Positions 4,866 through 64,000 of a stretch of 64,000 nt of DNA are shown in pieces. The notes below the pieces were generated by a model, which saw only the letters and a program-made list of their open reading frames with translations, was not told where the DNA came from and searched no databases. The position numbers and the translations under genes are program-made. Within the stretch, counting starts at the first letter, position 1; the number at the start of each line of letters is the position of its first letter. Source of the DNA: Blasia pusilla (lineage: Eukaryota); the NCBI GenBank assembly GCA_050084515.1, contig CM114271.1, positions 18,228,001 through 18,292,000 of the forward strand. Reading direction: 5' to 3'.

Positions 4866-5381
4866 TGTCACGTCTTTTAGGATAGATCGGTAAGATATAG
4901 TAGAGCGCCTTCTTGAGTAGTGAAGGACGGAGTCAAGAGGTTGAGGATGACCTACTGAGGCCTAGGGAAACTTGAGAGAGCAGGTTTCCCCTTCGTTTCG
5001 GCTCATTTGGAGGCATATAGAGGAACTTCCTATTTTAGGTAAGTACCATTTTGAGTATATGGTCAACTTTATATTTTTGGTAAGTGTCCATTGACCTCCT
5101 ACATCAGGTCAAGAACCAAGGAGGTGACTTGAGAGCATAGGTTACAACGGAGAGAGTTTGGGAGAGGGGAGGGGTATACGTCAAGGATAGAGAACTTGAG
5201 AGCTCATTCTCTCTTTGTTGAACCCCTTGGCATGAGGCGGCAGAGCTATGGTCTTGCTTGCCTTGTGTGGGTAACCCAAGCCTCTCATTAGAAGAGTAGG
5301 TTTGGTTTGACATTGAGAGAGACATGTGAGAGTGCACACATTTGAGAGCTATGGTGTTGAGAGAGATTGGATCTTAATTTA
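4866..5381 (+). repeat. Repeat A1 (family 1), ~515 bp
   Basis: Aligns by eye to 26793-27310 (reverse) and to the 5' parts of the solo units at 19995 and 42869. It is not followed by repeat B. Confidence 0.85.
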
Positions 5382-5939
5382 CAAAGAGAGAATGAGATGA
5401 GTGAGAGAGCTTCATGGGGGAGCTTGCTAGTCACTCACTAGTTTTGCAGGTTGGGGATTGTATTCCTTGTTTAGTGGTTCATGGGAGTGCTCACCGGAGC
5501 CAAAGCCACTCATTTTTTTATGTTTCCTTTGCCTATTTTTCGTGTGGAAGACTGGTGCGCGGAAGCGCTGCCCAATTTTTTATAGGGATTGAGTATGGGG
5601 GCGAATTTCCCCATGCAAGTGTTCTCGAGAGCATTATGCAGCTTGTTGATTTATGTTTCCACATGCTTTACAAAGTTTTTGGCAGAAATCAGTGCGGTAG
5701 TCGCTGCCAAATTTTGTGTAGGAGAAAAAGACATTGGGCTTTACGACAATCCTCATCAATTTTACTCGAATATTTGATTTAAAATGTTTTTGAACTTTGT
5801 CGTAGATCACAAAGTTGTGCATCGCTGTGCAATAGATAATGTACAATTTGGAGTTGCAAGCAAAAAGTTATGGTCAATCTTGCAAAACTGCCATTGCTAG
5901 GCAACTTTTAGGGTAAAATTGTTCAAACACAAAAGCAGT

Positions 5940-13050: not shown

Positions 13051-13178
13051 GTTGGAAATATTTTGTTTCTTCTTGTCTCGTTGTTTGGATGCCATGAATT
13101 AGCGTGGGATCGTGTATGTTTGTCTGTGTGTTTGCTGACAGCGATGTATGTTGTGTAGCAATGTGTATGCGTACAACA
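13051..13178 (+). repeat. Repeat B (family 1), ~128 bp, 3' end of element A
   Basis: Matches 27313-27440 and 26697-26792 (reverse) and the 3' ends of the solo units. It is preceded by gttagagggacctaac and a G-run. Confidence 0.85.
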
Positions 13179-19994: not shown

Positions 19995-21005
<1,011 letters not shown>

Positions 21006-21394
21006 AGGGATATGGTTGGAAGTGTGATCTATCTGATTATAACCAAGCCAAACTTCAATTATGCAATTGGCCTAATAAGCCAATTTATGCAAGCACCTTA
21101 AAAATCTCACCATAATGCTATAAGGATGATTATGCAGTATATGAAATTTTTGTTCAATTTGAACCTTCTTTGAGTTTACAATTACAGGGATTCATAGATA
21201 TTGATTGGGCAAGAAGCGTGTGTAATAGACATTCCATATTTGGTTATTCATTTACCTTGGGAAGCGAAGTTATTAGTTCGGCTTCAAACAAAGGTTTAAT
21301 ACAGAGGAGCAGCCAACGCAACGTGAGAGGCGGTCTGGCTTTATCAATTACTTGTTGAGATTCGTATTCGTAAATTAAGACCTATTGTAATTTT

Positions 21395-26696: not shown

Positions 26697-29600
26697 TGTC
26701 GTGAGCATAGATGTCGCTACACAACATACATTGCTATAACCGAACATACACACAAACACGTACGAGACAAGAAGTATCGAAATATCTCCAATTAAATCAA
26801 GTGGATCCAATCTCTCTCAACACCATAGCTCTCAAAATGTGTGCACTCTTACATGTCTCTCTCAATGTCAAACCAAACCCACTCTCCTAATGAGAGGCTT
26901 GGGTTATATTCATAAGGTAAGGGACCCTAATTTCGCCGCCTCGTGCCAAGAGGTTCAACAAAGAGAGAATGAGCTCTCAAGCTCTCTCTCCTTGAGGTAT
27001 ACCCCTTTCCCTTTCCCAAGCTATCTCCTTGGTAACCTATGCTTGCATATCACCTCCTTGGCTCTTGACCTGCTATAGGGGGTTAAAGGAAAATTCCCAA
27101 AGTGGGAAGTCAACTATACCAAATAGGGAAACTTACCCAAAATAATAAGTTTTAATATATGGCCCCCAAATGAGCCGAAACGAAGGGGAAAGATGCTCTC
27201 GTAGGTTACCCGTGGCCTCAGCAGGTCATCCTTGACCTCTTGAGGTTGTCCTCCAGTATCTCCGAAGGCGCTCTACTAGATCTTGCCGATCTATCCTAAA
27301 AGTCATGACAGTTGTCGGACGCATACACATCGCTACACAACATACATCGCTGTCACCAAACATACACACAAACACGCATGATCCCATGCTAACTCATGGC
27401 ATCCAAAAAAAAAGATAAGAAGTACCAAAATATCTCCAATCGCCCCCCTAGTTGGGGGTTAGGTCCCTCTAACTCTAGATAGTCACCTATCCCTACCTAC
27501 CATGATATACATCTCTCGGACGCTAAGAGCAAAAAGGCCGAGTGCTCATGTGGCCACATCGTTTGTCACCTTCTTGTCATCCATGTCACAGACACAAGTC
27601 AGAACCTAGAACTACCTACCATATATACATCGCGGACACATCCATCGTCCCTCAAGAATCCTAGTGAGAGGTGTCGTCAAACATGCCATATGCCACCCTT
27701 GCAAACACCTATCACAGGCTACCATACTGGCTGCACCATGGGCAGAACCACAACTTATATCACAAGCTTGCAGGAACTACGGCTAAGCTCGAATCAACTC
27801 TATCGTCAATGTTCGGAAGATGACATGACGCATGGTTACGCACATGGTCCTTCCAAACCATACCTTCGCGTCCCTCCAATAAGAGAACACCAGATGGCAA
27901 AACCTCACGCACTCTCAAGATGGTGCGTCATGCAGTCACATCCAATATTGTGGGTACCGTCTGCTCCAAGTAGACATAGTCTCCTTGATGAAACCTCCCG
28001 ATAGTAGGTGGATAACCACCTCCCCGAATAGTCGCATACCTCCACGTATCCCGATGCTGCGCAATCGCCAAGTTCTCAAACACCATGGGCATCACTGTCC
28101 GAAACAACTCAACCCTGTGCGAACATGCTTGCATCCATACATCACGGTCATCAAGGTTCAACACCTCACCAACATCTCGACGAATGGCCGCAGGGAAATC
28201 TGGCTCTCGGCCATAAAGCAACAAGTATGGTGAGAAAGACGCTAAGGATGTATGCCTGCTGAATATGTATCCCATCGCCAACCACGGCAAGTGGAGGTCC
28301 CAATCTCCTAGGTGACCTCTCTGCAAGCTATACTTGTCCAATCCTCTCTTCACCGTCTGCAAAACCCTCCCCGCTAGTCCATCCGCCTTAGGTTGATCTC
28401 GCAAAGTGGTGTGGTGGTCAATTAGTGCCAGATCACACAAGGCCTGAAACTCCCTGCGAAACTCTATACCTTGGTCTCTCAATATCTCAGCTGGTGCACG
28501 TAATGACTCAACACTCAATCTAGGAAGGCAAACGCTACTCCCTCACTTGCTTTATTAGGAAATGCAACCAACTCTATCCACTTTGAGAAGTGCTTGACCA
28601 TCACCAACACATAACGATTATGGCACTCCGTCAAAGGCAAAGGTCTTACAAAATCCAAACTCCATCTAAAACCTAAATCTCTGATCAGAAGTGGATGCAA
28701 TTGTGGAGTCGGAGCATTGAACGATGCTCGGACTCGGTCACACACCATGCACCTGGCAACAAACTGCTGAACGTCAGTCTGCATGCCTTGCCACCAATAC
28801 TATATCTGGAGCAAGTTGTACGTCCGCTTCACTCCAAAATGACCCGACTCTTTGTGGGCATGACGCACCAAACGTGCTCTCTACGAAGGATGAGGCACTA
28901 CACGCACTCTACCATCCTCCCAAACTCACAACATATGTGTCTCCTCCCACCGGAACCGTCTGGCTCGCCGTAGGATCCGATCCCGCTCTCTAACACCCAC
29001 TCTGCTCACGACGCTGCCACTACGCAGGTACTCCAAGACCACTCCATCGTCATGAATATCTCGGCCACCTGTCATCTCCTCACCGGACTTTGGATCTAAG
29101 GACTCTCCATCATACCTCGCCATCGAAGTCTCAACAATTTGGCTCTCCATAGCCAACAAGTCCAAATAGGCTGATGGGTGCCATCTTGGCACCAACTCCT
29201 CATCATTCTCACCATGCCAACGAGCTCTAGTCGCATCTTGCTGACTCAGGCATGGATTATGGCTCAAACCATCTGCATCCTAGTTGAGCGTCCAAGGTTT
29301 ATGCACCACCTGGAAGTCATACTCCTCCAACAAAAGAGCCCACCTCGCAAGCTTCCATGTAAGCTTGTCGGACACCATCAACCACTTAAGTGGCTGATGA
29401 TCAGTAATGATAATAAAGGGGTTTTTGAATAAATCACATCTGAAATGTGCAAAAATCCACACCGCAGCCAAGCACTCACCTTCATACGAGCTATACTTTG
29501 CCTCTGCAGCGTTGTTCGAGCGACTAGCGTAAGCCACCACGAACTCTCTACCATCATTGTCATGCTAGGTGAGCACGGCTCCAAGCCCCAACATGCTCCA

Positions 29601-30875
29601 ATCGGTATGCAACTGGAAAGGACGCCCCATGATCGCTCTCCATAATATGGGCGCGGACGTCAATATGTCCTTGAGAAGGTTGAAATGCTCTCTACTGCTC
29701 ATCCCCCCAATTCCACTCCTGATCCACCTTGGTCAGCAAGGTAAGGGGCTTAGAAATCGAACTGAAACCCTTGACGTACCGTTAGAATCCTCGGCTCATA
29801 TCGGTTGGGCGTGGAATGCGTGAAATAGCCTCTATCTTTGTGTGATGCACCCCAAGGCCCCTTGGGAATATCATATGACCAAGGTAATCAATTAGGTCGT
29901 AGAAGAACTTGCACTTTCCTGGATGTAGCTTCAGCTCATGTAATTGCAATCGTCGAAACACCTCCTCTAGATGTCGCTGATGCTCTTCAACCGTGGCGCT
30001 AAAGACTACGATGTCATCAATATAACACCTAGCAAGATCCAGACCTGCCAAGATTGTATCTATGACCCTTTGAAACTCAGTCGGGGCGTTCTTTAACCCA
30101 AATGGTAAGAAACGCCATTGGTACAAACTATCCTTCCTGTGAGGATCGATGCCCCAAGATATCGTCTTTTGCCTGTCCTCCAATCTGATAGGCAACTGAT
30201 GGTATCTGGCTCAAAGATCTAATGAACTGAAGACCTTTGCATGCCCAATAGCATCAAAGATCTCCTCAAGGGTGGGCATGGCATACCTATCTCACTTCAT
30301 CTTCCAATTGATAGGTCGGTAATCTCCACACATCCGCCTATCCGTCCAGTTGCCATGCACATCCTTCTTGGCGGGCATGATAGTGGCAGATGCATACTCT
30401 CCATGCGACGTCTCCACTAGTCCTGCTCCAACCAAGTCATGGCTCCTACTCTGAATCAAAGCCCTCTCCATGTCAATGTACCTGTAGGATCGTTGGAAGA
30501 TCGGCGTGTCGCTCGAAAACTAAATGCGGATCCCTGGACCCTCAAGCATATCCAAGTCATGCATACTAAATGCAAAGCAACTCCTATAACTCCTCAGGAA
30601 CTGATGAATCAGGCGCCGCTCTCCTCTTGTTAACTTAGGGCCCATATTTTGCTCCCAAGTCTTCATCGTGACTACGGTAGTACTCTCCGCCGCGGGTGTA
30701 GATGGTTGCTATGGTGCAACCCCATATCGGACAACAGAACTCAACTGCTCTCCTGCAACCAACTGCAAAATTGGATCTCCATGTGCAGTACCCGGAACTA
30801 CGCTCGATGTTGTGGCTACCATCTCGTGGCGTACCTGCAAAACATCCCAAGAAGTCCAAGGGTGTCTCCCCGATG
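26697..30875 (-). mobile_element. Element B (family 1): 5'-truncated RT-RH-INT-PHD with full B1-A2-B2 3' terminus
   Basis: ORFs 29782..30195 (LPFGL, CYIDD), 29280..29540, 28515..28784 and 27928..28518. PHD at ~27630-27780. B1 27313-27440, gt 27311-27312, A2 26793-27310, B2 26697-26792. Confidence 0.9.
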
Positions 30876-42070: not shown

Positions 42071-44800
42071 CACTAAGCGCCCATATTTTGTTGTTGGGGG
42101 CACATGCCTTGGATAGAGGTGGCACCATTCATTTGGTGATTGTAGGATGGCCATGTCAAGATCATTCATCGGCTGGCCAAGGGTTTAGAATGCAGGATCC
42201 GAGGCCAGGATGTTTTAGGAGATGCTACAAATATTCGATACTTGTAGGAGAGTCACATATGTTCTCCGGCGTATATTCTGTAGAACGTGCCACTATTGGG
42301 AGACACTCGTGCACGGGTGATGACGAGTGTGCATCAAGTGAGGTCATGGCTAGGACTTTCCATATTGTTGGATGCCGCGAGAGTTGGATCATACACACAC
42401 TATTTACGGTTATGGTGGACGAACCTTCTATCACTGGAGGTATTGAGCCGAGCTTATGATGGAGTTCAAAGAATACCACAATTGATTGTGGATGCGATCC
42501 TGGGTCTATGGCGTCGGTCTCCTGTGATGACGCTCGATGAACTAGATGATAGATCATCGTAGGCGGTAGCCAATAGGGTGGGGGAGTTGAGGTCAGCCTT
42601 ACCTACGTTGTTGAGCTTCACGATATCCCATGCCTTTTGAAAAGGAGGGCGAGGCATGACTTGGGATGCAAAGATCCGAGCATTAGATGAGTTTACTGAT
42701 AATAAGCGCGAACCCGCCATGGGGTTTACTATTGGTATGTGATACTATGACACTGCCAGATGTGATAGAGGCATCACGATGGACCTCAATTTTCTCACAT
42801 GGATAGTCACTCTAGGTATGGTTGAGCACAGAGGGATGTGAGTATCATCAATTGCATCACGTCCATAATGTCACATCTTCTAGGATAGATCGACAAGATC
42901 TACTAGCGCGCCTTTGGGGATACTATAGGTCAACCTCAAGAGGTTGAGGATGACCTACCAAGGCCACGGGTAACCTGAGAGAGTAGGTTTTCCCTTTGTT
43001 TTGGCTCATTTGGAGCCATATTGAGAAACTTACTATAACAAGTAAGTTACCATTTGAGTATATTTGACTTTCTATTTTGGGAAGTTATCCTTGACCTCTT
43101 ACAGCAGGTCAACAGCCAAGGAGGTGACCTACGAGCATAAGTTACCGTGGAGAGAGATCTTGGGAGAGGGAAGGGAGTATATCTCAAGGAGAGAGAGCTT
43201 GAGCACTCATTCTTTCTTTGTTGAACTTCTTGGCATGAGGCGACAGAGCTATGGTCCTCTTTGACTTGTGTGTATAACCTAAGCCTCTCTTGAGGAGAGT
43301 TGGTTTTGGTTTGATATGAGAGAGATAGAGTTGTGCACCTTGTAAGACATTATGAGAGAGTGTTACTTGATTTAATTCGAGATATTTTGTTACTTATCGT
43401 CTGATGTTTGGATAACATGAGTTAGCATGGGATCGAGAGTGTTTGTGTGTGTATTTGGTGAAAGCGATATATGTTGTGTAACGATGTCTATGCGCACAAC
43501 AATGAGTTAGCGTATTGCTCACATGGTATGTAAAGACATTGGCTAGGGGCGAGGGGAGGAGAGATAGGCATCCATGGACTTCCTGGGACGTCATTTGAGC
43601 AGAGAGTATGGAGGTGGCCAAAGTGGCACATGTTCATTTTTCAAGTGTGGAGCATGATGTGGGATCTAGATCAGAGTGGGATAACTGTAGCAAAGATGGC
43701 TAAGGTTGCTACATAGTAACCCTAGCTACATCGTTCTTTGGTTGCCATATAGCAACCCTAGCTAGACGGGGGTTGCGTCCTCTTCGAGTGAGGTCACGAT
43801 GGAGACTTGGGAGCTTGTGATATGTCTTGAGTTGACAAGAGAAGAGAGACCGTAGATACATAGATTTTTGAGAGGGCATGTGGGATGTTTTTCCTTCAAT
43901 ATAAGAGACTTGGGTACTTTTAAGGATCCCGAGATACGGATAGATTTCACTAATGATATGCCAATCCTTTGTCGATCCTAGAGGTATTTTGACATGGAGC
44001 GAGCCTTGACTCCGAGTAAGAGTCAGGACTTGTGGGAGGCAGTATTGGTGGAGTTATTGCATGAGGAGTATGCATATACCAAAGTCATGCTGGCGAAGAA
44101 GGATATGTATGGCAACTGGATAGATGGGCAGATGTGTAGAGATCACAATCCTATTAACCGGCAGACAAGATTAGATTGGTATGCCATGTCTACTCATGAG
44201 GAGATCTTTTCTTTGGTAGGGCATTCAAAGCAAAGATCTCCTCATGAGTAGACATGGCATACTTTAGCATGGAGATCTTAAGTACTGCCCTCTTTGCTTT
44301 GGTAGGCATCTCCGTGCTGGCTATCATCAACTGCCTATCAGGATGGAGGACAAGAAGAAGACAAATTTTTGGGGGATAGATTGGTTCGCAAGAGATTTTT
44401 TGTAATAGTGGTGGTTCTTACCATTTGGGTTCAAGAACACCCTTATGGAGTTCCAGAGAGTCATGCATAGGATTTTGGCTCGCTTGGATTTTGTACAATG
44501 TTACATAGATGATATTGTTATCTTCAATTCCATGATTGAGGAGCATGAGCGACACCTGGAGGAGGGGTTTTGATCATTGCAATTATATCCAGGCAAGTGC
44601 AAGTTTTTTGAAGAGCAAATTGAGTACTTGGGACAAACCATAAACCATAAGGTGGGTTAGATGTTCAACACATAAAGGTGAAGGCTATTATACAGATTCC
44701 ATGCCCTACAAATGTGAGTCTAGTTCGAGCGTTTCTGGGACACGTAAACATCTGTTGCCAATATATCAAGGGGTTTAGTGCGATTGTGAAGTCTTTGACC
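42070..44800 (+). mobile_element. Element E: degenerate DNMT-RT fragment of the same group
   Basis: LVIVGWPCQDHS (42130-42170), NVPLLGD, LLDAARVGS..LRLWWTNL, and RT motifs LPFG and CYIDD (~44500). Confidence 0.85.
42869..43501 (+). mobile_element. Solo A-B unit of family 1 (633 bp) nested in element E
   Basis: TGTCA...CAACA, with A directly followed by B. Flanks ataa/atga. Confidence 0.85.
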
Positions 44801-44801
44801 T

Positions 44802-48358: not shown

Positions 48359-49111
48359 TGTCGTGCGAATCCACATCGTCATACAACATACATCGTTGAC
48401 ATACCATACTTACATACATACAACATAGACGAGAGCATCCACAAACATAAGTGTACCACAACTGAAATCCGTGGAAGACCTACTGTCATAACACACGTAT
48501 AGAATCACATACAATCGAGCCAAACCCACTCCACGATGGGAGAATCCAAGTCGAAGCTTGCGGGAACTACCATAACCAAGAGCTCTACTCACTACCAAGG
48601 CTAACTCCCAACACAACAAGCTCAACTCAAAGAACTAACTGTTCTTTGAGTGCACTCCACACTATATCCTCCAACCTAACAGCGGGCCCTACTGGAAAAG
48701 TCACCCTCAACTGAGTAACCCCCAACCCTGTGTATGGAACCGCATCTCTACCTAGACACTACGGCCCTACATAAGGTATGGCCTCTACTAGCACACTATA
48801 CTCTACGACATAATCCGTATGGTCATGACAGTTGTCATGCGAATCCACATCGTCATAAAACATACATCGCTGATATACCATACTCACATACATACATAAC
48901 ATATACGAGAGTATCCACAAACACAAGTGTACCACAACTCGCCCCCCTAACTAGCGGTTAGGTCCCTCTAACTCCTAGGTAGCCCTATACATCTACAACA
49001 TGCTATACACCTTCTTGGGTGCCCGAATCAAAAGGTCGGGTGCTAGGTTGCCCCATCGTTAGTCGCACATATGTAATCCATATCATGCAAAGATCAAGTC
49101 ATCTACCTCTC

Positions 49112-50257
49112 CTAAGTACATCGAGGACAAACCCACCTTCCAGTAGGAACAACATCCATACATGGAGTCAAACACATAATGTGCCAACCCCTAGAACACC
49201 GATCACACACCAACATACAGGCTGTGTTACCAGCAGACCCACACAACATGCACCTCAAGCTAGCATGTATCATGGCTAAGCTTGGATCAACAGTACCATC
49301 CACATTTGGAAGATGACATTGCTCACAATTATGCACATGGTCCTTCCAAAAAACTCCATCACGACCCTCAAACATGAGAACTCCAGAAGCTAACACCTCG
49401 CGCACTCGTAAAATAGTGCGGTCTGCCGTCACATCCAACGTTGTCGGTGCAATCTGCTGCAAATAGACATAGTCCCCCACATGGAACATACAAATCGATG
49501 GTCGATAACCTCCACCCTGAATGGTTGCATACCGCAACGTATCCTTATTTTGAGCAATGGCAAGACTCTCAAAGGTTGTTGGCATAACTCTCCGAAAGAG
49601 CTCTGTCCGCTGAGAACACACTCTCATCCACATCTCTGGGTCATCAAGGTTCACCACCTCACTAGACTCCCGACGAATTGCTACTGGCAAGTCTGGATCT
49701 CGGCCGTTTAACAGAAAATAAGGTGAGAAGGAAGCCAAGGATGCTTGGCGACTGAACCTATATCCCACGGCTAACCATGACAACTGAATATCCCAGTCTC
49801 CAAGATGCTCCTTCTGTAGGCCATACTTGCGCAATGCCCTCTTCACCGTCTGAACCACACGCTCAGCCAAACCATCCGCCTCTGTATGATCTCGAGACGT
49901 GGTCCGATGATCAATCAACGCCTTGTCACACAAGACCTGAAACTCACCCTGAAACTTTGGACCCTGGTCGGTCAGCACTTCAGCTGGTGCACCAAAATGA
50001 CTAAGCACTCTATCAAGAAATGCATACGCTATTCCCTCACTTGCCTTGTGAAGTAATGCCACCAAATCAATCCACTTGGATAAGTGCTCCACCATCACCA
50101 ACACATATCGATGATGTCGTACAGTCAACGGTAACGGTCCCGCAAAGTCCACACTCCAACGGTAATCCAACCCCATAATAAGCAAGATGTGTAATTGTGG
50201 TATAGAGGCATTGAATGATGCCCTCACCTGGTCACAAACCATACAACGTGACACCAA
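49112..50257 (-). CDS. Integrase core fused in frame to a C-terminal PHD finger (381 aa, element C)
   Basis: WSVDFAGP, LTDQG and GLAERVV (DDE), then CMLCGS...MLVCDRCSRGWHIMCL...WVCPRC in one open frame. Confidence 0.9.
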   Translation of the reverse strand: MVSRCMVCDQVRASFNASIPQLHILLIMGLDYRWSVDFAGPLPLTVRHHRYVLVMVEHLSKWIDLVALLHKASEGIAYAFLDRVLSHFGAPAEVLTDQGPKFQGEFQVLCDKALIDHRTTSRDHTEADGLAERVVQTVKRALRKYGLQKEHLGDWDIQLSWLAVGYRFSRQASLASFSPYFLLNGRDPDLPVAIRRESSEVVNLDDPEMWMRVCSQRTELFRRVMPTTFESLAIAQNKDTLRYATIQGGGYRPSICMFHVGDYVYLQQIAPTTLDVTADRTILRVREVLASGVLMFEGRDGVFWKDHVHNCEQCHLPNVDGTVDPSLAMIHASLRCMLCGSAGNTACMLVCDRCSRGWHIMCLTPCMDVVPTGRWVCPRCT

Positions 50258-52269
50258 TTGCTACACCTGAGTATGCATGCCACGCCACCAATACTGACCA
50301 AGGAGTAAGCTATATGTACGCTTTATCCCAAAATATCCCAACTCCTCATGGGCATGTCGCACAATGCGCTCTCTTTGAGCCAAATGCGGCACTACTCGTA
50401 CTCTACCATCCTCCCACACACGGAGAATATGTGTTCCCTCCAATCGATACCTCTTAGCACGTTGAAGAACACGGTCTCGCTCCTTGGCACTCACTATGCC
50501 TGGCACCCTACTGGTCCGTAGGAACTCCAACACCAACGCATCATCATGAATATCACGCTGATCCGTACCACCATCTCCAACCTAGGATCTGAAGGCTCGC
50601 CATCTACCCTCTGACTAGAGTAAGATGGCCAGCCATCTTACTCTAGTAAGATGTCATGTGGTCCTCCATACTAGAGTCCACCCCTAACCAACATAAAAAG
50701 GTAGATGCATGCCAACTTGGCACCATCTCCTCATCAACCTCGCCATGCCATCTAGCCCCAGTTGCATCCTCTTGGCTAGTACATGGGTTCCTACTCAACC
50801 CATCAGCATCAAGGTTGGCAACTCGAGGTCTATGTACCACTTGGAAGTCGTACTCCTGTAAGATAAGAGCCCACCGTGCAAGCTTCCCTGTAAGCTTGTC
50901 AGACTCCATCAACCACTTGAGCGGCTGGTGATCAGTAACAAGGGTAAAGTGTGTGCCAAACAAGTAACACACAACCCACACTGCTGCCAAGCACTCTCCC
51001 TCATATGAACTATAGCGCGAAATTGGTTCAAAGGCTTTGCCATAGCACTAAATCCCTTCACATACCTCCGATAGTAGTTCACCAATCCCATGAATTCCTG
51101 AACTCTACTCACATCTACCGGACGAGGAATAAGTGCAATAGCCTCCACCTTTGCTTGCCGAACTCCCAAACCACCTGGATAGATCACATGACCCAAGTAC
51201 TCAACATCCTCATGGAAGAACTTACACTTTTCCGGATGCAAACGTAGACCATGAGCTTTCAACCGCTCAAACACAATCTGCAAATGTATCTGATGCTCCT
51301 CCACCGTGTTACTGAACACCAAGATATCATCCATGTAACACCGAACAAAATCCAACCCTGCTAGGATCCTGTCCATCACCCTCTGAAACTCGGCATGTGC
51401 ATTCTTCAACCCAAAGGGTAAGAATTTCCACTAGTACAAACAATCCTTGCCATGAGAGTTGACACCCCAAAATGTTGTCTTGGCCTTGTCACTCTCTCGA
51501 ATCGGCAATCGATGGTATCTGCCGAAGATCCAAAATCTGAAAATCTTTGCTGTCCCACCACATCAAAGATCTCTCAGGTGTAGGCATGGCATACCTATCG
51601 CCTTGGTCTGCCGATTGATAGGACGGTAATCTCCACACATCCGCCTATCCGTGTAGTTGCCATGCATATCCTTTTTTAGCATGATGGCAAAGTGGGGTGA
51701 TGCATACTCTCCATGCGAAAATTCCACTAATCCAGCCTCCAAAAGGTCCAACGTCCTACTCTGAATCAGGTCCCTCTCCATATCACTATGTTGGTAGGGA
51801 CGATGAAAGATTGGCATATCACTAGCCAAATCAATCCGTATACCGGTCCAACCAAAGCACCCAACTCCTTCATGCTAAAGGCAAAACAACTCCTATAAGT
51901 ACGTAGGAACTGTGTCAAGCGTCATTTCTCACCTCCCGTAAGCTTGGGCCCAAGTAATGGCTCCCAAGTCTCCTCCACTGGCACACTAGAGGGAGAGGAC
52001 GACGCCATTGGTTGCTACGCAACCCCCTCACAAGATGGTACACCCTTAGCTACACCATCATTTGAGCAAATAACTCCTCCACCGGCATGAGCAACCGACT
52101 CCACATGCCCAGCCATTACATCCCATTTACTCCAAGGATGCAAAATACTACTCTCCTCGCCCCCAGCTGATGCCTCTACCATCCCGGTAGCCATCGAGCT
52201 CATCACAAGGGGTGAAAGACCCACAAACATAGTCCGAAGTTGACGCTGCTCGACCATACCAATACTCAA

Positions 52270-53230
52270 AATCCAGGTCAAACAATTCAGGTCCATGGCC
52301 TGACCCAACACATGACATCGTGAAGCCTCATAAATGGAAGCAACCGCTGTCACACCAATAGCAAATCCCATCGCACGCTCTCTCTCATCAGCGTTAGGCT
52401 CCACCAAGTGTCGCACATGAGAATCCTTACAAGCCCGGACCACCTTCCCTGTAGGCATGTGACGAGGGAAAACTCACAAATGTGGGTAGTGCCATCCTAG
52501 GCTGGCCCACATGGTTTACCACTGCCATGGGTGACCGATCAATAACCCTCACCACTTAAGAGAGTCGCCCAGTATCCAAGATACTAGCCATTGTAAGGCA
52601 AGGATCCCAGCTGCATTGCATCATATGCTCGACGTAGAACCTCCCTAGGCAACAAGTTTGTCCACCACAAGCGTGGACGATGTGCACGCAAGCCAACTCA
52701 CGCTGAATCTAACAACACCGCTGGTCCAATCCAAGACCGCATCTCATGAACACTCGCCATCATCCGGGTTCGAGTGTCACCCAACAATGGAACATTCTCC
52801 AAAATGTGAACTGGAGCACGTGCCTGATGAACCTGAAGATATTGTAATACCCGTAATATCTCCCAAAATAATCGAGACCTAGGGTCGTGTAATCCTCACC
52901 ACGACCAGCACGTGTATGACCCTAACATGGCCATCCAGCAATCACCAAATCCACAAGACCAACCCTCTCAAGGTCTTGCGCCCCCAACAATGCAATGTGT
53001 GACGGCAAAGCACGCTGGTATCCACGAATAGCTGATGGTGGCAACAACTCAAGATATCTCCGAATCAATTGACCAATATGTTGGGATGAGACTCTCTGGG
53101 CCGTCTCATCTCGCTCCACATACACGTATCTCCACACAGGAATACAGCTTGCAACACTGCAGCCAAACCAGTGCTCATCCCACCAAAGAGATCTAACACA
53201 CAAATGCCCTCCGGCGGATACTCCTATACA
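52270..53230 (-). pseudogene. Element C cytosine methyltransferase domain
   Basis: LDLFGG (~53180-53195), YVYVERDE, LVIAGWPC*, ENV (~52795), ERERAMGF, RCHVLGQAMDL. Confidence 0.9.
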
Positions 53231-55052
53231 ATGCGTGTAGTATCCAAAGGGGATAACCCAACTAGACCAGAAGTAGGAGTCCACCGTGGGGCCTCCTCTT
53301 CCTCGTGAGGTATAACAGCCTCACACCAAGCCTCCTGCACTAGGCGTCGACCTCTGCCGTAGTGCACTTTGCTCGAACTCCAAAGTGGCACATCCAACGA
53401 CGAGGATACCACTGCTACAAAACTAGGGACTCCTCTACCTCCTCATGCACAGGAGAATCCATAGCATAAAGGTTACCCTCCAAAAAGTCTCCTGGCCAAG
53501 TGACTACTCCAGAAAAACCAGCCACAGATGCTAACACCGTTACGGAAGACCATCCTGGTCGAACCCGACAAATAAATCTCACAGGAACCTGGCTCACACG
53601 TCCATCCCCGAATTTCCAACAAGGTCTATAAGACGTTGTCTAAGTCCAGTAGTCCATCTGAAAACCCATCCGATACAATACTGCTCCTCCATACGGCTTG
53701 GCTGATGTGACCACTACAGGTACTGCCAACCAGGAGCTATCAGTTGCATGATTTGGTCTCAAGTGTACAGAAAACATCTCCCGTGTCATGAATTGAGACC
53801 TATCATTGGCTCCTCCAAGTGATGTTTGAATCTGAAATGGGCAAGGCTCAAGCTCTGACCTCCGAATACCCAAACCAATACATGTCGCCTTTCCCAACAT
53901 CAAAGGTTGGGCACCAAAGTCTAACAAGACTCTATCTGGTCTATACACCTGTCCTGTAGGACTCACCAATCGGAATATCCCACTCCGGTTGTCCAACATA
54001 CATACACCAGGTGTAAGCCTCTCATGATCAATAGCTGGTCGGGCTGGCAATGCATCCATCTTCGCCGTTGCTGCCTACCAAGTAGCACTGGTACTCAATG
54101 CTACACTTGACATAGAGGGTCGCTCCACCGCAACACCCTCATCCACCTCAACACGTGTAGTAGTAACATCCCCACGTTCACACAACGTGGCTGCTAGCTG
54201 AAATACAGGAGCTAAGTCAACTCCTAAAGCCATCAGCTCCGTGGCTGAAAATAATGGGGATCCCAACACTGAAGTTGCCATCCGCAATATTGCACTGGAT
54301 GCTACATCCCTGTCTACTACACGCGATGTACATGCCTCAGTCCCGACTGTAGGCTCAATAGGCTGCGTAGAAACCATGGATGGAGTCCTAAGCACCTCAG
54401 ACAACAAGAATGACTGGGGAAGCCTAGCCTGCCTCCCAACCTCACCCCTCTGTGGTTCCAACTCCACAATAGCACCACGTGGCTCTAACGCTCGAGTGGC
54501 TCCTCTCGTAACTGCAGCCAATGCTTCAACCTGTGCTACACTCGCCATATAAGAGAGATCATCCCCTCCATAAGAGGTGGAAGCCCCTGCTCTGGAACCT
54601 GCTCTATGCTGGATACCAGCCATAATAGCCAACTTATGCTCCAACTGCTCAATTCAGGCAACCATAGCTGACTCTGTTGTAGTGGTAGGGGTAGCCACCA
54701 TAGGCTCTCCAACCACTGGTCTAGCTCTACCACCCCTACTACCTCTACCATCTTGGCCTCTCGGAGCTACTCCACCACGGCCGCAACCTAATCTCAACTT
54801 TGGATGAAGATCAAAGCAACGCTCTCGAGGATGACCTAGTCTCCCGCAATGATAACACTAAGTTGGGGCCGACTGAGGCCCATCCTCCAAAGTCCGTCCC
54901 CCATCCTCTTGGGGACAAAACCTCCTAACATGATAACCTCCACATGTCTAACATGCCTTTCCTTGCTGCGGGGCAGCAAATGAAGGCAATGGTCTTTGCA
55001 CAAGTGTCCCTCTAGGACCTGACTGAGGTCATATGTACCCCCTACGACTCCC

Positions 55053-55084
<32 letters not shown>

Positions 55085-56327
55085 GAGATTGTGAGGTGGA
55101 TTGCTGAACACGAGAAGTAGTAGTTGTATCCCTACTGAATGCGGATGTCACCACTCTCTCCTCCACCATGTTAAGCTCAATCTTCTCAGATAGAGCAAAC
55201 ACATGGGTCAATGTGGGTGAATCATCACTCATAAGAGTAGCATCACATACCCTGCGGCGCAACTCTTTGTCCAAGATCCCATACCAAAACAGGACTGCCT
55301 GAGCCGCAGTTACACCATGGGTAACTGAAATCAAGCGTCATATTTCAAGCGTCACATAGGAATGTATGCCTCACGAAGACACTCACCAGTCTTTCGCTCA
55401 AATTCCTGAAGACTCCTCAACTTCTCTGTCTTCACTCCCTGATAGTTCTTCTTCAACCTCTCGGAGAACTCTACAACCGGGCTGAACAATGGTGGGGCAC
55501 TAGTATCTCCACTAGTACCCCCACTGGTACCTCCATGGGTACCTCCAATGGTACCTCCACTCCGGCTCGTACTCGTACCACTCAACGTCGGGCTGACTGG
55601 CATAGTAGAAGCACTACTACCAATACCACCATGGGTGATAGACACATAGCCTAGAGACCAATATTGTCTCCACGCCTCAATCTCAACAATATGGTCCTTC
55701 CTAAACTCATGGTAATCGTCCATGGGTGGTCCCTCCAAGTGCTCAAACAACCCCTTCCAAGCCAAGAAGGGTGTAAACAACGTGGCCTTCCGCAACATCT
55801 GCATATCACACCACGTATCAAACTCCTGAATGAAGTCCTCCAACTCAATGGTGCCCACTGCACCTAAGTATAGTCGTGGGCCCTTCATGGCCCCATATAT
55901 CCCATCCATGTCCCAAATCAATGGAGTTGCAGCACTCGATAACAACATAGAAGACTCGGTGTTTAGAACCCCCTTGTCCTCCTCTTCATCAACCGTCAAA
56001 AGTGGAAAAGGTAGTCGATACCTCAATCCACTCCATGTAAAACCACCACTATCTGCACCACGGTCCCCAACTAGACCACCAGACAGCTCTGTGATGACCA
56101 ACGCCGATGCCGCACCACCACCAAATGGTGGCGGTGCGGCAATCACCACCACTAAGTAACTAAGTGACATCGATGTCGCTGTACTATTCTAGCTCTACTA
56201 GCTATGGGTGTAGGCAAGCTAACCTGTCATCACCACAAGAAGCCTCCCACGGTCTACTTGTCATCAATCCAGCCTCACTACCGGTAGCACACATGAGTAA
56301 AACTATTGTGGAAATCGGCGTCAACTT

Positions 56328-59300
56328 TGTCGTGCGAATCCACATCATCATACAACATACATCGCTGACATACCATACTCACATACATACATAACATAGA
56401 CGAGAGTATCCACAAACACAAGTGTACCACAACTCGCCCCCCTAACTGGCAGTTAGGTCCCTCTAACTCCCAGGTAGCCCTATACATCTACAACATGCTA
56501 TACACCTTCTTGGGTGCCCGAATCAGAAGGTCGGGTGCTAGGTTGCCCCATCGTTAGTCGCACATCTGTAATCCATATCATGCAAAGATCAAGTCATCTA
56601 CCTCTCCTAAGTACATCGAGGACAAACCCACCTTCCAGTAGGAACAACATCCAAACGTGGAGTCAAACACATCATGTGCCAACCCCTAGAACACCGATCA
56701 CACACCAACATACAGGCTGCGTTGCAGAGACCCACACAACATGCACCTCAAGCTAGCATGTATCATGGCTAAGCTTGGATCAACAGTACCATCCACATTT
56801 GGAAGATGACATGGCGCACAATTACGCGCATGGTCCTTCCAAACAACTCCATCACGACCCTCCAACATGAGAACTCCAGAAGCTAACACCTCGCGCACTC
56901 ATAAAATTGTGCGGAGTGCCGTCACATCCAACGTTGTCGGGCACTCTGCTGCAAATAGACATAGTCCCCACATAGAACCTACAAATCGATGGTTGATAAC
57001 CTCCACTCGAATGGTTGCATACCGCAACGTATCCTGTGTTGAGCAATGGCAAGATTCTCAAAGGTTGTTGGCATAACTCTCCGAAAAGAGCTCGCTCGTT
57101 GAGAACACACCTCATCCACATTCTCGGGTCATCAAGGTTCACCACCTCACTAGACTCCCGACTAATTGCTTCTGGCAAGTCTGGATCTCGGCCGTATAAC
57201 AGAAAATAAGGTGAGAAGGAAGCCAAGGATGCTTGGCGACTGAACCTATACCCCATGGCTAACCATGGCAACTCAATATCCTAGTCTCCAAGATGCCCCT
57301 TCTGTAGGCCATACTTGCGCAATGCCCTCTTCACCGTCTGAACCACACGCTCAGCCAAACCATCCGCCTCTGGATGATCTCGAGACGTGGTCCGATGATC
57401 AATCAACGCCTTGTCACACAAGACCTGAAACTCACCCTGAAACTTTGGACCCTAGTCGGTCAGCACTTCAGCTGGTGCACCAAAATGACTAAGCACTCTA
57501 TCCAGAAACGCATACGCCGTTCCCTCACTCGCCTTGTCCGGTAATGCCACCAACTCAATCCACTTGGAGAAGTGCTCCACCATCACCAACACATATCGAT
57601 GATGTAAATGCATACCAACAGTAACGGTCCCGCAAAGTCCACACTCCAACGGTAACCCAACCCCATAATAGGCAAGGGGTGTAATTGTGGTGTAGGGGCA
57701 TTAAATGATGCCCTCACCCGGTCACAAACCATACAACGTGACACCAAATCGCTGCACACTGAGTATGCATGCCACGCCACCAATATCGCCAAGGAGTAAG
57801 CTATACGACGCTTTATCCCAAAATGTCCCAACTCCTCATGGGCATGTCGCACAATGCGCTCTCTCGAGCCAAATGTGGCACTACTCGTACTCTACCATCC
57901 TCCCACACACGGAGAATATGTGTTCCCCAATCGATACCTCTTAGCACGTTGAAGAACACGGTCTCGCTCCTTGGCACTCACTATGCCCGGCACCCCTCTT
58001 TGGTCCGTAGGAACTCCAACACCAACGCATCATCATGAATATCACGCTGATCCATACCACCATCTCCAACCTTAGGATCTGAAGGCTCGCCATCTACCCC
58101 TCGACTAGAGTAAGATATCATGTGGTCCTCCATACTAGAGTCCACCCCTAACCAACATAAAAAGACGGATGCATGCCAACCTGGCACCATCTCCTCATCA
58201 ACCTCGCCATGCCATCTAGCCCGGATTGCATCCTCTTGGCTAGTACATGGGTTCCTACTCAACCCATCAAAGCATCAAGGTTGGCAACTCGAGGTCTATG
58301 TACCACTTGGAAGTCATACTCCTGTAAGATAAGAGCCCACCGTGCAAGCTTCCCTGTAAGCTTGTCTGACTCCATCAACCACTTGAGCGGTTGGTGATCA
58401 GTAACAAGGGTAAACGGGTGCCAAACAAGTAACACCTAAAGTGTGCCCATGACCCACACTCTTGCCAAGCACTCTCCCTCATATGAACTATAGCGCGACT
58501 CCATTGCATTATTCGAACGACTTGCATAGGCCACCACAAACTCCATGTGCTCATCATCATGTTGTGTCAACACCGCTCCAAGTCCCAACCTACTCCAATC
58601 GTGTGTAATCTGGAAATGGGCGCCCCGATAGGTCTCCTCAAGATAGGCTCCGCCACCAACGGGCCTTAAGCTCCACAAAAGCTCTCTCGATCATCTCCCA
58701 GTGCCACTCTTGATCTGATTTCAGCAATTGGTTCAAATGCTTTGCCATAGCACTAAATCCCTTCACATACCTCCGATAGTAGTTCGCCAATCCCATGAAT
58801 GCTCAAACTCTACTCACATCTACCGGACGCGGAATAAGTGCAATAGCCTCCACCTTTGCTTGCTGAACTCCCAAACCACCTGGATAGATCACATGACCCA
58901 AGTACTCAACATCCTCATGGAAGAACTTACACTTTCCTAGATGCAAACGTAGACCATGAGCTTTCAACCGCTCAAACACCATCTGCAAATATATCGATGC
59001 TCCTCCACCGTGTTATCGAACACCAAGATATCATCAATGTAACACCGAACAAAATCCAACCCGCTAGGATCCGTCCATCACTCTTTGAAACTCGGGAGGT
59101 GCATTCTTCAACCCAAAGGGTAAGAATTTCCAATGGTACAAACAATCCTTGCCATGAGAGTTGACACCCCAAAATGTTGTATTGGCCTTGTCACTCTCCG
59201 AATCGGCAATTGATGGTATCTCGCCGAAGATCCAAAAATCTGAAAATCTTTGCCTGTCCCACCACATCAAAGATCTCTCAGGTGTAGGCATGGCATACCT

Positions 59301-62300
59301 ATCGCCCCTGGTTTGCCGATTGATAGGACGATAATCTCCACACATCCGCCTATCCGTGTAGTTGCCATGCATATCCTTTTTAGCGAGCATGACAGTGGGC
59401 GATGCATACTCTCCATGCGAAAATTCCACTAATCCGCCTCCAAAAGGTCCAACGTCCTACTCGAATCAAGTCCCTCTCCATATCACTATATCGGTAGGGA
59501 CGACGGAAGATTGGCGTATCACTAGCCAAATCAATCCGTATACCAGGTCCAACCAGAGAACCCAACTCCTTCATGCTAAAGGCAAAACAACTCCTATAAG
59601 CACGTAGGAGGCGTGTCAGCGTCGTTTCTCACCTCCCGTAAGCTTGGGCCCAAGTAATGGCTCCCAAGTCTCCTCCTTTGGCACACTAGAGGGAGAGAAC
59701 GATGCCATTGGCGCACACGCATAACCCCCTCACAAGATGGTACACCCTTAGCTACACCATCATTTGAGCAAATAACTCCTCCACCAAAGCATGAGCAACC
59801 AACTCCACATGCCCACCATTACATCCCATTTACTCCAAGGATGCAAAATACTACTCTCCTCGCCCCCAACCGATGCCTCTACCGCCCCGGAGCCATCGAG
59901 CTCATTACAAGGGGTGGAAGACCCTGACATAGTCCGAAGTCGATTTGCTCGGCCATACCAAGACTCAAAATCCAAGTCAAACAATTCAGGTCCATGGCCT
60001 TTGACCCAACACATGACGTCGTGAAGCCTCGTAAATAGAAGCAAATTTGTCACACCGAGAGCAAATCCCATCGCACGCTCTCTCTCATCAGCGTTAGGCT
60101 CCACCAAGTGTCGCACATGAGAATCCCATACAAGCCCCGGACCACCTTCCCTGTAGGCATGTGACGAGGGAAAACTCACAAATGTGGGTAGTGCCATCCT
60201 AGGCTGGCCCACACGGTTCACCACTGCCATGGGTGACCGATCAATAACCCTCACCACTTGAGAAAGTCGCCCAAAGATATCAAGATACTATCCACCGTAA
60301 GGCGAGGATCGGCCGCTGACCGCATCATATGCTCAACGAGAACCTCCCTAGGCAACAAGTTTGTCCATCACAAGCGTGGACGATGTGCACGCGAGCCAAC
60401 TCGCGCTGCATCCAACAACACCGCTGGTCCAATCCAAGACCGCACCTCATGAACACTCGCCATCATCCGGGTTCGAGTGTCACCCAACAATGGAACATTC
60501 TCCAGAATGTAAGCTAGAGCACGTGTCGATGAACTCTGAAGATGTCGTAACACCCGTAACATCTCCCAAAACAATCGAGACCTAGGGTCATGTAATCCCT
60601 CACCACGACCAGCACGTGTATGACCCTGACATGGCCATCCAACAATCACCAAATCCACAGGACCAACCCTCTCAAGGTCTTGCGGCCCCAACAATGCAAT
60701 GTGTGATGGTAAAGCACGCTGGTACCCACGAATAGATGATGGCGGCAACAACTCGGATATCTCCGCATCAATCGACCAATATGTCGGGATGAGACTCTGG
60801 GCCGTCTCATCTCGCTCCACATACACGTATCTCCGACAGAATACCGCCTGCAACATCGCCGCCAAACCAAGTGCTAATCCCACCAAAGAGATCTAACACA
60901 CAAATACCCTCCGCGGATATCGCCATACAATGGGTGTAGTATCCAAAGGGGATAACCTAACTGGACAGAAGTAGGAGTCCGCCGTGGGGCCTCCTCTTCC
61001 TCGTGAGGTATAATGACCTCACACCAAGCCTCTGCACTAGGCGTCGGCCTCCGCCATAGTGCACCGCTGAACTCCAAAGTGGCACATCCAACGATGAGGA
61101 TGCCACTGCTGCAAAAATAGGGACCTCCTCTACCTCCTCATGCGCAGGAGAATCCATAGCAGAAACATTACCCTCCAAAAAGTCTCCTGGCCAAGTGACT
61201 ACTCCACTAAAACCAGCCATAGATGCTAACACTGTTGGGGAAGACCCTCCTGGTCGAGCCCCAGTAATAAATCTCACAGGAACTTGGCTCATACGTCCAT
61301 CCCCGGACTGCCAACCAGGTCAGAAGACTGTCTCGACCCAAATAATCCATCGAAAACCCATCGGATACAATCGCTCCTCCAACTAGTACATCATACGACT
61401 CGGCTGATGTGACTACCGCAGATACTCCCAACCGGGACCTATCAGTCGCATGATTTGGTCTCAAGTGTACAGAAAACATCTCCCGTGTCATGAATTGAGA
61501 CCTATCATTGGCTCCTCCAAGTGATGTTTGAATCTGGAATGGGCAAGACTCAAGCTATGACCTCCGAATACCCAAACCAATACATGCCGCCTTTCCCAAC
61601 ATCAAGGTTGGGCACCGTGAGTCTAACAAGACTCTATCTGGTCTATACACTGTCTGTAGGACTCACCAATCGGAAGATCCCACCGGTTGTCCAACATACA
61701 TACACCAGGTGTAAGCCTCTCACGATCAATGGCTGGCCGGGCTGGTAATGCATCCATCTTCGCCGCGCTTGCCAAGTAGCATTGGTACTCAATGCTACTC
61801 TTGACATAGAGGGTCGCTCCACCGCAACACCCTCATCCACCTCAACACGTGTAGCAGTAACACCCCCACGTTCACACAACGTGGCTGCTAACTGAAATAC
61901 AGGAGCTAAGTCAACTCCTAAAGCCATCGCCCGTGGTGAAAACAATGGGGATCCCAACACTGAAGTTGCCATCCGCAATACTGCATTGGATGCTGCACCC
62001 GTGTCTACTACACGCGATGTAGATGCCTCAGTCCCCACTGTCGGCTCAATAGGCTGCGTAGGAACCATGGATGGAGTCCTAAGCACCTCAGACAACAAGA
62101 ATGACTGGGGAAGCCTAGCCTGCCTCCCAGCCTCACCCCTCTGTGGGTCCAACTCCACAGTAGCACCACGTGGCTCTGACGCTCGAGTGGCTCCTCTCAG
62201 AATCGCTGGTGATGCCTCAACTTTGTCTTTGCACTCGCCATATAAGAGAGATCATCCCTCCATAAGAGGTGGAAGCCCTCGCTCCCGAACCCGATCTATC

Positions 62301-64000
62301 TTTGGATATCGACCATAGTAGCCAACTTCTGCTCCAATCTGCTCAATCTTGGCGCCATAGTCGACTGTCGTAGTGGTAGGGGTAGCCACCGTAGGCTCTC
62401 CAACCACTGGTCCACCTCTACCACCCCTACCACCTCTACCACCTCGGCCTCTCGGAGCTACTCCACCACGGCCACGGCCTGATCTCAACTCTGGATGAAG
62501 ATCAAAGCAACGCTCTCGAGGATGACCTAGTCTCCCGCAATGATCACACTGAGTTGGGGCCGACCGAGGCCCATGCTCCAAAGTCCGTCTCCCATCCTCT
62601 TGGGGACAAAACTTCCTAACATGATCATCTCCACATGTCCAACATGATCGCCCTTGCTTGCTGGGGCAGCAAATGAAGGCAATGGTCTCTGCACAAATGT
62701 CCCTCTAGGACTTGATCGAGGTCGCGTGTACCCCCACGACTCCCATTGCTACTACCACCACCACTACTACGAGACTGTGAGGTGGGCGGTGAACACGAGA
62801 AGTAGTAGTTGTATCCCCATGAATGCGGATGTCACCACTCTCTCCTTCACCATGTTAAGCTCAATCTTCTCGGGATAGAGCAAACACATGGGTCAATGTG
62901 GGTGAATCATCACTCATAAGAGTAGCATCACGCACCCTATGGCGCAAATCTCTGTCCAAGATCCCATACCAAAATCGACTTCTGATCCTCGGTCACACCT
63001 GGGTAACTGAAATCAGCGTCGATACGCTGGCGTGTATGCCTCACTTAAGACTCTCACCACCTTTCGCTCAAAGTCCTGAAGATTCCTCAACTTCTCCGTC
63101 TTCACTCCTTGATAGTTCTTCTTCAACCTCTTGAAGAACTCGAACGGGCTAAACGATGGTGGGGCACTAGTACCTCCACTAGTACCCCCACTAGTACCTC
63201 CACTTTGGTACCCCCACTCCGGCTTGTACTCGTACCACTCAACGTCGGGCTGGCTGGCATAGTAGGAGCACTACTACCAATACCACCATGGGTGATAGAC
63301 ACATAGCCTGGAGACCAATATTGTCTCCATGCCTCAATCTCAGCAACATGGTCCTTCCTAAACTCATGGTAATCATCCATGGGTGGTCCTTCCAAATCTT
63401 TGAAACAACCCTTCCAAGCCAAGAAGGGTGTAAACAATGGCGTTCCGCAACATCTGCATATCACACCACGTATCAAACTTCTGCATGAAGTCCTCCAACT
63501 CAATGGTACCCACTGCACCCGAGTATCGTCGTGGGCCCTTCATGGCCCCATATCCACCGTCCATGTCCCAAATCAATGGAGTTGCAACACTCGATAACAA
63601 CGTAGAAGACTCGATGTTTGGAACACCCTCGTCCTCCTCTTCATCAACCGTCGGAAGTGGAAAAGGTAGCCGATACCTAAATCCACTCCGTGTGAAACCA
63701 CCACTGTCCGCACCACGGTCCCCAACCAGACCACCCGACAGCTCCGTGATGACCAACGCCGATGCCGCACCACCACCAAATTACCCAAATGACGTCGATG
63801 TCGCTCTACTATTGTAGCTCTACTAGCTATGGGTGTAGGCAATCTAACCTCTCATCACTACAAGAAGTCTCCCACAGTTTACTGGTCATCACTCCAGCCT
63901 CACTATCAATAGCACACAGGAGTAACACTACTCTGGAAATCAACGTCAACCCTAACAATGGGCGCGCAAGCAAGAAGCACGATGGAGGGGATCCAGACAC
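56328..64000 (-). mobile_element. Element D (family 2), same architecture, ends in repeat B only; 5' end is outside the window
   Basis: Collinear with C from PHD to gag. B at 56328-56434. Knuckle CDHCGRLGHPRERC and RGG box in 62252..62581. Many 1-bp frameshifts. Confidence 0.92.
59980..60910 (-). pseudogene. Element D cytosine methyltransferase domain (best preserved catalytic core)
   Basis: ORF 60368..60886 reads VDLVIVGWPCQGHTRAGRGEGLHDPRSRLF...YILENVP...GSRAHRPRL. ORF 59760..60257 carries ERERAMGF. Confidence 0.92.

Follow-up and report, generated by a model that had tools for sequence, protein, structure and literature searches.

Split direct repeats, in which two repeated segments, A and B, are arranged as A1-coding region-B1-A2-B2, are known from retroelements of the DIRS order, such as Ngaro, PAT and SymbioDIRS-Dnmt3. 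Elements of this order have a gene for a tyrosine recombinase and are not known to duplicate their target. SymbioDIRS-Dnmt3 is described as having such a recombinase (PMC5890265), and the same paper describes KnitGypsy-Dnmt3 of Klebsormidium nitens, whose Gypsy pol encodes, as part of the polyprotein, a C5-methyltransferase of the Dnmt3 type (de Mendoza et al. 2018); according to the legend of Fig. 4c of that paper, its repeats are as in DIRS and its domains are those of Gypsy. Another point of reference is the Tf1/Sushi group and the plant Tcn1 group of Gypsy elements, where the primer-binding site (PBS) is described as complementary to the 5' end of the element's own RNA, so that no tRNA is used (PMC6317226). 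Here, the comparison concerns a 64,000-nt stretch of DNA of Blasia pusilla (GenBank assembly GCA_050084515.1, contig CM114271.1, positions 18,228,001 to 18,292,000 of the forward strand), referred to below as the window. It is eukaryotic DNA, dense with decayed Gypsy-type retrotransposons, and two of these, named element B and element C (not to be confused with the repeat B), end in split repeats.

The split layout A1-int-B1-A2-B2, where int is the interior of the element, is genuine and characterizes the family, and it occurs here together with a DDE integrase and target-site duplications. In the account that is favored here, at a probability of roughly 60%, the repeat made by reverse transcription consists of B plus A, the integrase sites lie inside this repeat, and the copies with the split layout come from a precursor with joined ends.

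Layout of the repeats

The coordinates in the window were obtained by self-blastn, repeat finding and direct reading of the sequence, and those of element B agree to the base with the original prediction made for this DNA. At the 3' end of element B, the repeat B1 is followed by a 2-nt spacer, by A2 and by B2 (Table 1). B1 and B2 of this element are 82 to 84% identical over 67 to 72 nt, and B2 is internally deleted, being 96 nt long vs 128 nt for B1. Its pol region (27441..30874) is 85% identical to 9595-13178 of element A, at whose 5' end A passes directly into internal sequence without B, as the original prediction also states. Element C, also named in the prediction as a different family with the same layout, is indeed a separate pol family (about 70% identical) that shares the 3' layout of element B.

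The layout was then surveyed among relatives. A scan of metagenome contigs with an integrase-PHD alignment gave 602 matching stretches, of which 364 encode relatives and the best 80 were kept; the layout was tested at the 50 loci that have a G-run after the integrase gene, and duplicate assemblies were merged (L003=L004, L024=L025, L054=L055=L060 and L065=L067=L069). A second B downstream, giving the order B-NN-A-B after the integrase gene (NN being the spacer), is found at 18 of these 50 loci, corresponding to 12 distinct copies, in addition to the two cases in the window. The 12 ends fall in two families, with integrases 47% and 77% like that of the window, and in five of the copies (L022, L024, L036, L055 and L062) A1 is visible upstream as well. 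Ends with a single B, directly followed by unrelated DNA, are present in at least 23 distinct copies. Five loci are too short for the 3' form to be called, and in L014 and L032 the order polypurine tract-B-NN-A is seen, B2 and A1 not being found in the available contig sequence. The 5' side is uniform: neither B nor A-B precedes A1 at any of 11 distinct 5' ends (ten metagenome copies and window element A), in line with the predicted 5' end of A only. Identical long terminal repeats (LTRs) at the two ends of an integrated copy are thus not what is found, the 5' end being A only (11/11) and the 3' end being either B-NN-A-B or B alone.

Two further scans were made. That of genome contigs gave seven loci, on eukaryotic contigs that had been placed in prokaryote bins, among them L081 and L082; in L083 to L087, which have 42 to 43% identity, no repeat pair was found, and these give no verdict on how far the layout reaches. 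Among the 42 pattern matches in viral contigs there is no relative. The ends of the L081 contig (1-127 and 9159-9285) are identical over 127 nt, so that the assembly closes as a one-unit circle A-int-B-NN. Most simply, this closure is an assembler collapse of the identical repeats of young copies, and it is no proof of a DNA circle.

Termini and target-site duplications

Target-site duplications of 4 bp flank the whole unit, from the start of A to the end of the last B, and are perfect in seven of the nine metagenome elements with both ends visible. Among the A-int-B-A-B copies these are AAGG (L022), TCTC (L024), GGTC (L036) and ACCT (L062), and among the A-int-B copies TACA (L001), TGTT (L019) and TCAT (L046); the two imperfect ones are L055 (A-int-B-A-B, 3/4) and L034 (A-int-B, 2/4). 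In the window, candidate duplications with 3/4 matching positions are seen around element A (CATT/CACT) and around the solitary A+B unit (ATAA/ATGA). The termini of the unit are inverted, TGTCATG...CA(C/T)GACA, in agreement with the TG...CA ends of the original prediction. These ends recur back to back in B1-NN-A2, separated by a 2-nt spacer (AC, GC or AT), without indel in 12/12 distinct metagenome copies. Duplications together with inverted ends are the mark of a DDE integrase and not of a recombinase.

These data also bear on the reading in which both ends carry A+B as the true LTR, B1 being a duplicated piece of the 3' untranslated region with the 5' B lost, or the arrangement being a chance nested solo LTR. 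It is true that the A+B unit has TG...CA ends and that it stands alone at 42869-43501. However, B follows A at 0/11 distinct 5' ends, where the PBS adjoins A directly; B-NN-A-B is present in 14 independent copies, with the duplications around the whole unit; and B1 and A2 are separated by a 2-nt spacer and not by a 4-bp duplication. This reading is already contradicted and keeps next to no probability; the original prediction had itself named A+B at both ends, with a chance nested solo LTR, as the finding that would speak against the split layout, and no such copy was encountered when it was looked for.

Encoded proteins

In elements C and A the Pfam domains RVT_1, RT_RNaseH(_2), Integrase_H2C2 and rve follow each other in this order, with a PHD finger at the C-terminus, and element D has a piece of a C5-cytosine methyltransferase (PF00145, E 2e-9). 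The better-kept relative L036 has, in one frame with three stops, the order protease, DNA_methylase (PF00145), reverse transcriptase (RT), RNase H, H2C2, rve and PHD, the match of the protease being weak (PF13975, E 0.0014). The Ty3/gypsy order of pol, protease-RT-RNase H-integrase (H2C2 and DDE core), is thus found in elements C, A and L036, and the Dnmt3-type C5-methyltransferase domain sits between protease and RT; the nearest solved structures of the methylase part of L036 are those of DNMT3A/3B/3C. In a six-frame search of L036 and elements A and C, none of the 100 open reading frames (ORFs) of at least 70 amino acids matches PF00589 or any recombinase at E<=0.01. The integrase, the protease and the lack of a visible tyrosine recombinase had all been noted in the original prediction, and Pfam bears this out. 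A protein that its source assigns to Klebsormidium nitens (P0106 here) is 52% identical to the window integrase at 75% query coverage and is colinear with the Dnmt-RT part of L036 (37% over 790 amino acids, E 6e-166). Judged by domain content and order, the elements are Ty3/gypsy retrotransposons of the KnitGypsy-Dnmt3 kind, with the pol order protease-Dnmt3-RT-RNase H-integrase-PHD.

Repeat borders

A run of five or more G precedes the start of B by 0 to 4 nt in each of the five sub-lineages, namely the two families of the window, both metagenome families and the L014/L081 type. At the other border, the 11 to 16 nt right after A1 can pair, exactly or nearly so, with a single site in the middle of A, as is seen in nine copies, with complements of 16 nt in window element A (5381-5396 vs 5203-5218) and L022, 15 nt in L036 and L055, at least 14 nt in L023, 13 nt in L081 and 12 nt in L019, and of 14 nt with one mismatch in L062 and two mismatches in L046; window elements C and D, of which A1 is outside the window, are not part of this survey. 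In each family a TATA-like box stands 29 to 33 nt upstream of the complementary site in A. The repeats are bordered by a polypurine tract and a PBS as in ordinary LTR-type reverse transcription, the use of both as primers being predicted.

A also carries a PBS-like sequence just upstream of the predicted start of the RNA (48651-48625 on the minus strand in A2c, the A2 of element C, and about 156-180 of A in L022), and the predicted start is therefore within an inverted repeat, ...CTCAAAGAAC..GTTCTTTGAG... It is possible that a hairpin at the start site would compete with self-priming or guide it.

Proposed route from RNA to integrated copy

In the favored account the RNA would start inside A1, about 30 nt past the TATA-like box, and its 5' end would pair with the PBS directly after A, giving self-primed synthesis of the minus strand, as in Tf1. 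The plus strand would be primed at the G-run directly before B1. Since these two priming sites lie after A and before B1, respectively, the LTR of reverse transcription would be B-NN-A and the linear cDNA (B-NN-A)-int-(B-NN-A), B being the start of U3 and A being the remaining part of U3 with R and U5. The integrase would ignore the ends of the cDNA; its recognition ends (TGTCATG..., ...CATGACA) would be those standing back to back, 2 nt apart, at the B/A border inside the repeat. Cutting this border in both repeats would generate A-int-B. Cutting one such border after joining of the cDNA ends, in a 2-LTR circle or an equivalent U5/U3 joint, would generate A-int-B-NN-A/B (the slash marks the joint), the only form that would keep the redundancy for another round. 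Integrated copies would be permuted like an opened 2-LTR circle because the integrase palindrome lies inside the LTR, and the A2/B2 joint would be the end of U5 abutting the start of U3, the type of joint found in 2-LTR circles. There is precedent for integrase cutting of palindromic LTR-LTR junctions in foamy virus (PMC1180852) and, in vitro, for HIV-1 (PMC1905944), as these papers describe it. The route through circles is what we infer from the joint; that circles, or an equivalent U5/U3 joint, are an obligatory precursor of the productive, replication-competent insertions is a more tentative proposal, to which we would not give even odds.

The A2/B2 joint and the ages of the copies

The A2/B2 joint consists of the end of U5, of one to three bases matching the start of the PBS, and of B from its first base. 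In element B of the window, the last base of A2 (26793) is the match to the first PBS base. Within family 2 the joint has one extra base in five copies, two in one copy and three in two copies, L055 being aberrant; in family 1 and in both window elements it has one, and L024 of family 1 has 17 extra nt. The joint is not simply inherited between copies, because the close relatives L065 and L037, which share private indels and the AT spacer, differ there. In L082, the youngest copy found, B1 and B2 match at 106/106 nt, with the match ending exactly at the two borders, as expected if both B were made from one template in one event.

The age of the copies is relevant to the possibility that all insertions are A-int-B-A-B and that the single-B copies and the solo A+B units arise later by B1 x B2 or A1 x A2 recombination. 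The formation of solo LTRs by recombination between repeats is established for LTR elements, and both deletion products would keep the duplication, as is seen. However, there are at least 23 distinct single-B ends vs 12 B-A-B ends, the B repeats are short (106 to 175 nt), and the single-B copies are not older: they differ from the column majority by a median of 5.5% (n=13), vs 5.8% (n=9) for the B-A-B copies (Mann-Whitney p=0.95), and the three least diverged copies are single-B. The similar ages fit single-B copies made at integration rather than by slow deletion, the age test having low power. Later deletion as the source of all the shorter forms is therefore regarded as rather unlikely, although it is the strongest competitor of the account favored here.

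Transcripts

Raw reads from three RNA-seq runs that carry the same species label were mapped on element A at a likeness threshold of 85%. Read coverage extends over the full length of the element and favors its sense strand by about 10-fold or more; the reading of sense from strand bias holds for most stranded libraries. The end of B is joined to the start of A by 189 reads, in five listed variants with spacers that include AC, AT and GT, and therefore the transcripts run through B1-NN-A2. Across the end of A the depth drops from 72-133 at 5298 to 11-27 at 5425. This pattern agrees with an RNA that would end in A2.

RNA reads crossing B1-NN-A2 would also be expected if replication were like that of DIRS and Ngaro elements with an integrase added, so that the RNA runs from A1 to B2, B1-A2 serves as a bridge by template switching to rebuild the ends or a circle, and the integrase inserts the product. 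The geometry is the same as in the split direct repeats of Ngaro and PAT, as the legend of Fig. 4c in PMC5890265 says for the Klebsormidium relative. However, no joint between the end of A and the start of B is among the 15 best-supported RNA joints (18 further joints have less support). Furthermore, the A2/B2 joint differs between sister copies and is thus not copied faithfully, and the borders at a polypurine tract and a self-priming PBS are predicted by two-jump LTR synthesis but are not required by bridging. With no tyrosine recombinase in the 100 ORFs and with target-site duplications present, a replication of this kind is considered improbable. The "hybrid replication strategy" of the original prediction is accordingly retained in part: the split-repeat geometry is real, but the polypurine tract, the self-priming PBS and the 4-bp duplications leave no call for replication in the style of tyrosine-recombinase elements.

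Two skipped segments are seen in the reads, one of 154 nt with GT..AG ends (11013-11168; 28 reads, three runs) and one of 1073 nt with four other letters in between (9922-10996; 38 reads). Either an intron or variation by deletion between expressed copies may account for these.

Points that weigh against the proposed route

Several observations count against a B-NN-A repeat cut at its internal palindrome. The mirror form A/B-NN-A-int-B, which a symmetric circle should give equally often, is found at 0/11 distinct 5' ends; it may be lost quickly by recombination between the two close copies of A, or the intermediate may be asymmetric. One copy, L073 (=L074), ends in B-NN-A without B2, which the account does not explain: at 3510-3986 it has B-AC-A, with unrelated DNA right after the U5 end and a few bases. 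This could be the right end of a cDNA captured without integrase, or a deletion. The PBS complement is not found at the expected place in four decayed copies (L001, L024, L034 and L071). Indels are found elsewhere in A and B too, so that the A2/B2 joint is a hot spot and not the sole variable place, and in older copies the B1-B2 identity within a copy equals that between copies, as in a star-like burst, and is uninformative. Given the low power of the age test, single-B copies could still come from B1 x B2 deletion. On the side of the RNA, the bins and lists are coarse, with about 1000 loose ends outside the joints that were listed. Finally, the cDNA, the circle, the transcription start and the poly(A) site are all inferred, none of them being directly observed.

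Features of the window

The coordinates of the features are collected in Table 1. Element D ends at its single B (56328) and abuts an interior point of element C that is about 760 nt past the expected end of A1, as judged by complete relatives. Because the single-B end of D joins the interior of the 5'-cut element C, D is a nested insertion into C; a D-C tandem from unequal crossing-over was considered and is rejected for the same reason.

Table 1. Positions of repeats, elements and predicted signals in the window (+, forward strand; -, reverse strand)
Feature	Position	Strand	Remarks
Element A: A1	4866..5380	+	starts TGTCAC; B on neither side
Element A: TATA-like box in A1	5174-5178	+	
Element A: predicted RNA start segment in A1	5203-5218	+	
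Element A: predicted self-priming PBS	5381..5396	+	16-nt exact complement of 5203-5218
Element A: polypurine tract	13042-13051	+	precedes single B
Element A: single B at 3' end	13052..13178	+	A-int-B form
Decayed A...B remnant	19995..21006	+	broken up by (TG)n microsatellite arrays
Element B: B2	26697..26792	-	3' terminus of integrated unit, ...CGACA; flank next
Element B: A2	26793..27310	-	starts TGTCATG
Element B: A2 segment complementary to PBS	26973-26958	-	
Element B: TATA-like box in A2	27001-26997	-	
Element B: spacer AC, 2 nt	27311..27312	-	palindrome-like junction ...GACA AC TGTCA...
Element B: B1	27313..27440 (128 nt)	-	ends ...CGACA; putative U3 start of reverse-transcription LTR
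Element B: polypurine tract, G-run TAGGGGGGCG	27441..27450	-	directly upstream of B1; read in sequence
Element B: RT-RNase H-integrase-PHD region, decayed	27441..30874	-	5' part lost or disrupted
Solitary A+B unit	42869..43501	+	TGTCAC...CAACA
Element C: 3' end	48359..48948	-	polypurine tract 48948-48939, B1c 48938-48833, AC, A2c 48830-48463, B2c 48462-48359
Element C: interior, cut at 5' side	48949..56324	-	gag-like, protease, Dnmt remnants, RT, RNase H, integrase H2C2 + rve, PHD
Element D	56328..64000	-	3' end = single B 56433-56328; 5' end beyond window
Element D: C5-methyltransferase motif region	60892-60371	-	

Other repeats are present as well. A pol fragment about 70% like element A, named element E (43793-48333, plus strand), begins 290 nt after the solitary A+B unit, with which it is not in register, and breaks off at about 48333, the point of contact with the 3' end of element C. 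The (TG)n/(GT)n arrays at 20161-20880 and 45076-45324 share 250 identical nt, the first being located within the decayed A...B remnant and the second within element E. A direct repeat of 1 kb, 85% identical between 17591-18593 and 33031-34026, is unrelated to the A/B elements; its second copy occupies the place where element B should have its 5' part, pointing to the insertion of another repeat family. At 611-1448 there are degenerate tandem repeats, with units of about 60 to 190 nt that are 65 to 71% alike.

Discussion

Split direct repeats have so far been treated as a signature of tyrosine-recombinase retroelements, and here they are found with a DDE integrase and target duplications. Because of this combination, annotation tools that expect pairs of LTRs will miss or misfile such elements. 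The layout itself is already in print for the Klebsormidium relative. What appears to be new, within the literature searched, is the evidence that the split repeats reflect a permutation in a self-primed Gypsy life cycle that is ordinary in other respects; the adjacency of the polypurine tract and the start of B, the self-priming PBS at the end of A and the variable make-up of the A2/B2 joint are newly described. For 'KnitGypsy' only the 2018 paper was found, and no description of this mechanism was found in the literature on split direct repeats with integrase or on PHD-bearing and self-priming LTR retrotransposons, most subscription journals and Repbase Reports being outside the coverage of these searches.

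The account is concrete and testable, as it consists of ordinary reverse transcription and of integration at an internal palindrome, and it bears on the old question of whether LTR-LTR joined DNA can feed integration. If the more tentative proposal of an obligatory joined precursor also holds, the recognition ends of the integrase would have moved, in this lineage, from the tips of the LTR to an internal palindrome, and this would be the first natural retroelement whose heritable copy can only be made from a molecule of the circle-junction type. The many A-int-B copies would then be dead-on-arrival by-products of the cutting of plain linear cDNA, and the split direct repeats of Ngaro and PAT would find their explanation in this geometry too. 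With its Dnmt3 domain and its transcription in the host, the family is a live system for examining the mechanism.

Comparison with known systems

The closest described element is KnitGypsy-Dnmt3, with which the window elements share a Dnmt3-bearing Gypsy pol, DIRS-like repeats and the integrase kinship to P0106; the window elements belong to another species or family, their closest relatives being 69 to 82% identical. The main-text account of KnitGypsy-Dnmt3 in PMC5890265 gives no duplications, PBS, polypurine tract or mechanism. With the DIRS order, the A-int-B unit without redundancy can be seen as a permuted circle, but the tyrosine-recombinase analogy is one of geometry only: in the window family the integrase is of the DDE type, the ends are inverted (TG...CA) and flanked by 4-bp duplications, and a recombinase is missing from all 100 ORFs.

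Three further elements were considered. The comparison with Troyka, which the original prediction had asked for, shows that the two are unrelated. Both are LTR retroelements with atypical termini, but Troyka, as described by Kojima (2025, PMC12440569), is an animal-only, virus-like LTR retroelement with CG...CG ends, 3-bp duplications and ordinary LTRs, whereas the window family has TG...CA ends and 4-bp duplications. Chlamyvir elements have chromodomains, with no mention of a PHD, and the LTRs of DGLT-A are ordinary.

The priming of the window family would be like that of the Tf1/Sushi and Tcn1 elements when considering the self-complementary PBS, the 5' end of the RNA being predicted in the window family. 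These elements have ordinary LTRs, with the integrase ends at the ends of the LTR, whereas in the window family the integrase ends would lie inside the LTR. The proposed cutting step has its like case in the 2-LTR circle junction of foamy virus and HIV-1, where, according to PMC1180852 and PMC1905944, the integrase cuts a ...CA-spacer-TG... palindrome internally to give processed ends. The retroviral palindrome is the U5/U3 joint itself, whereas in the window family the palindrome is in the interior of the repeat and the U5/U3 joint would be retained, uncut, in the integrated copy.

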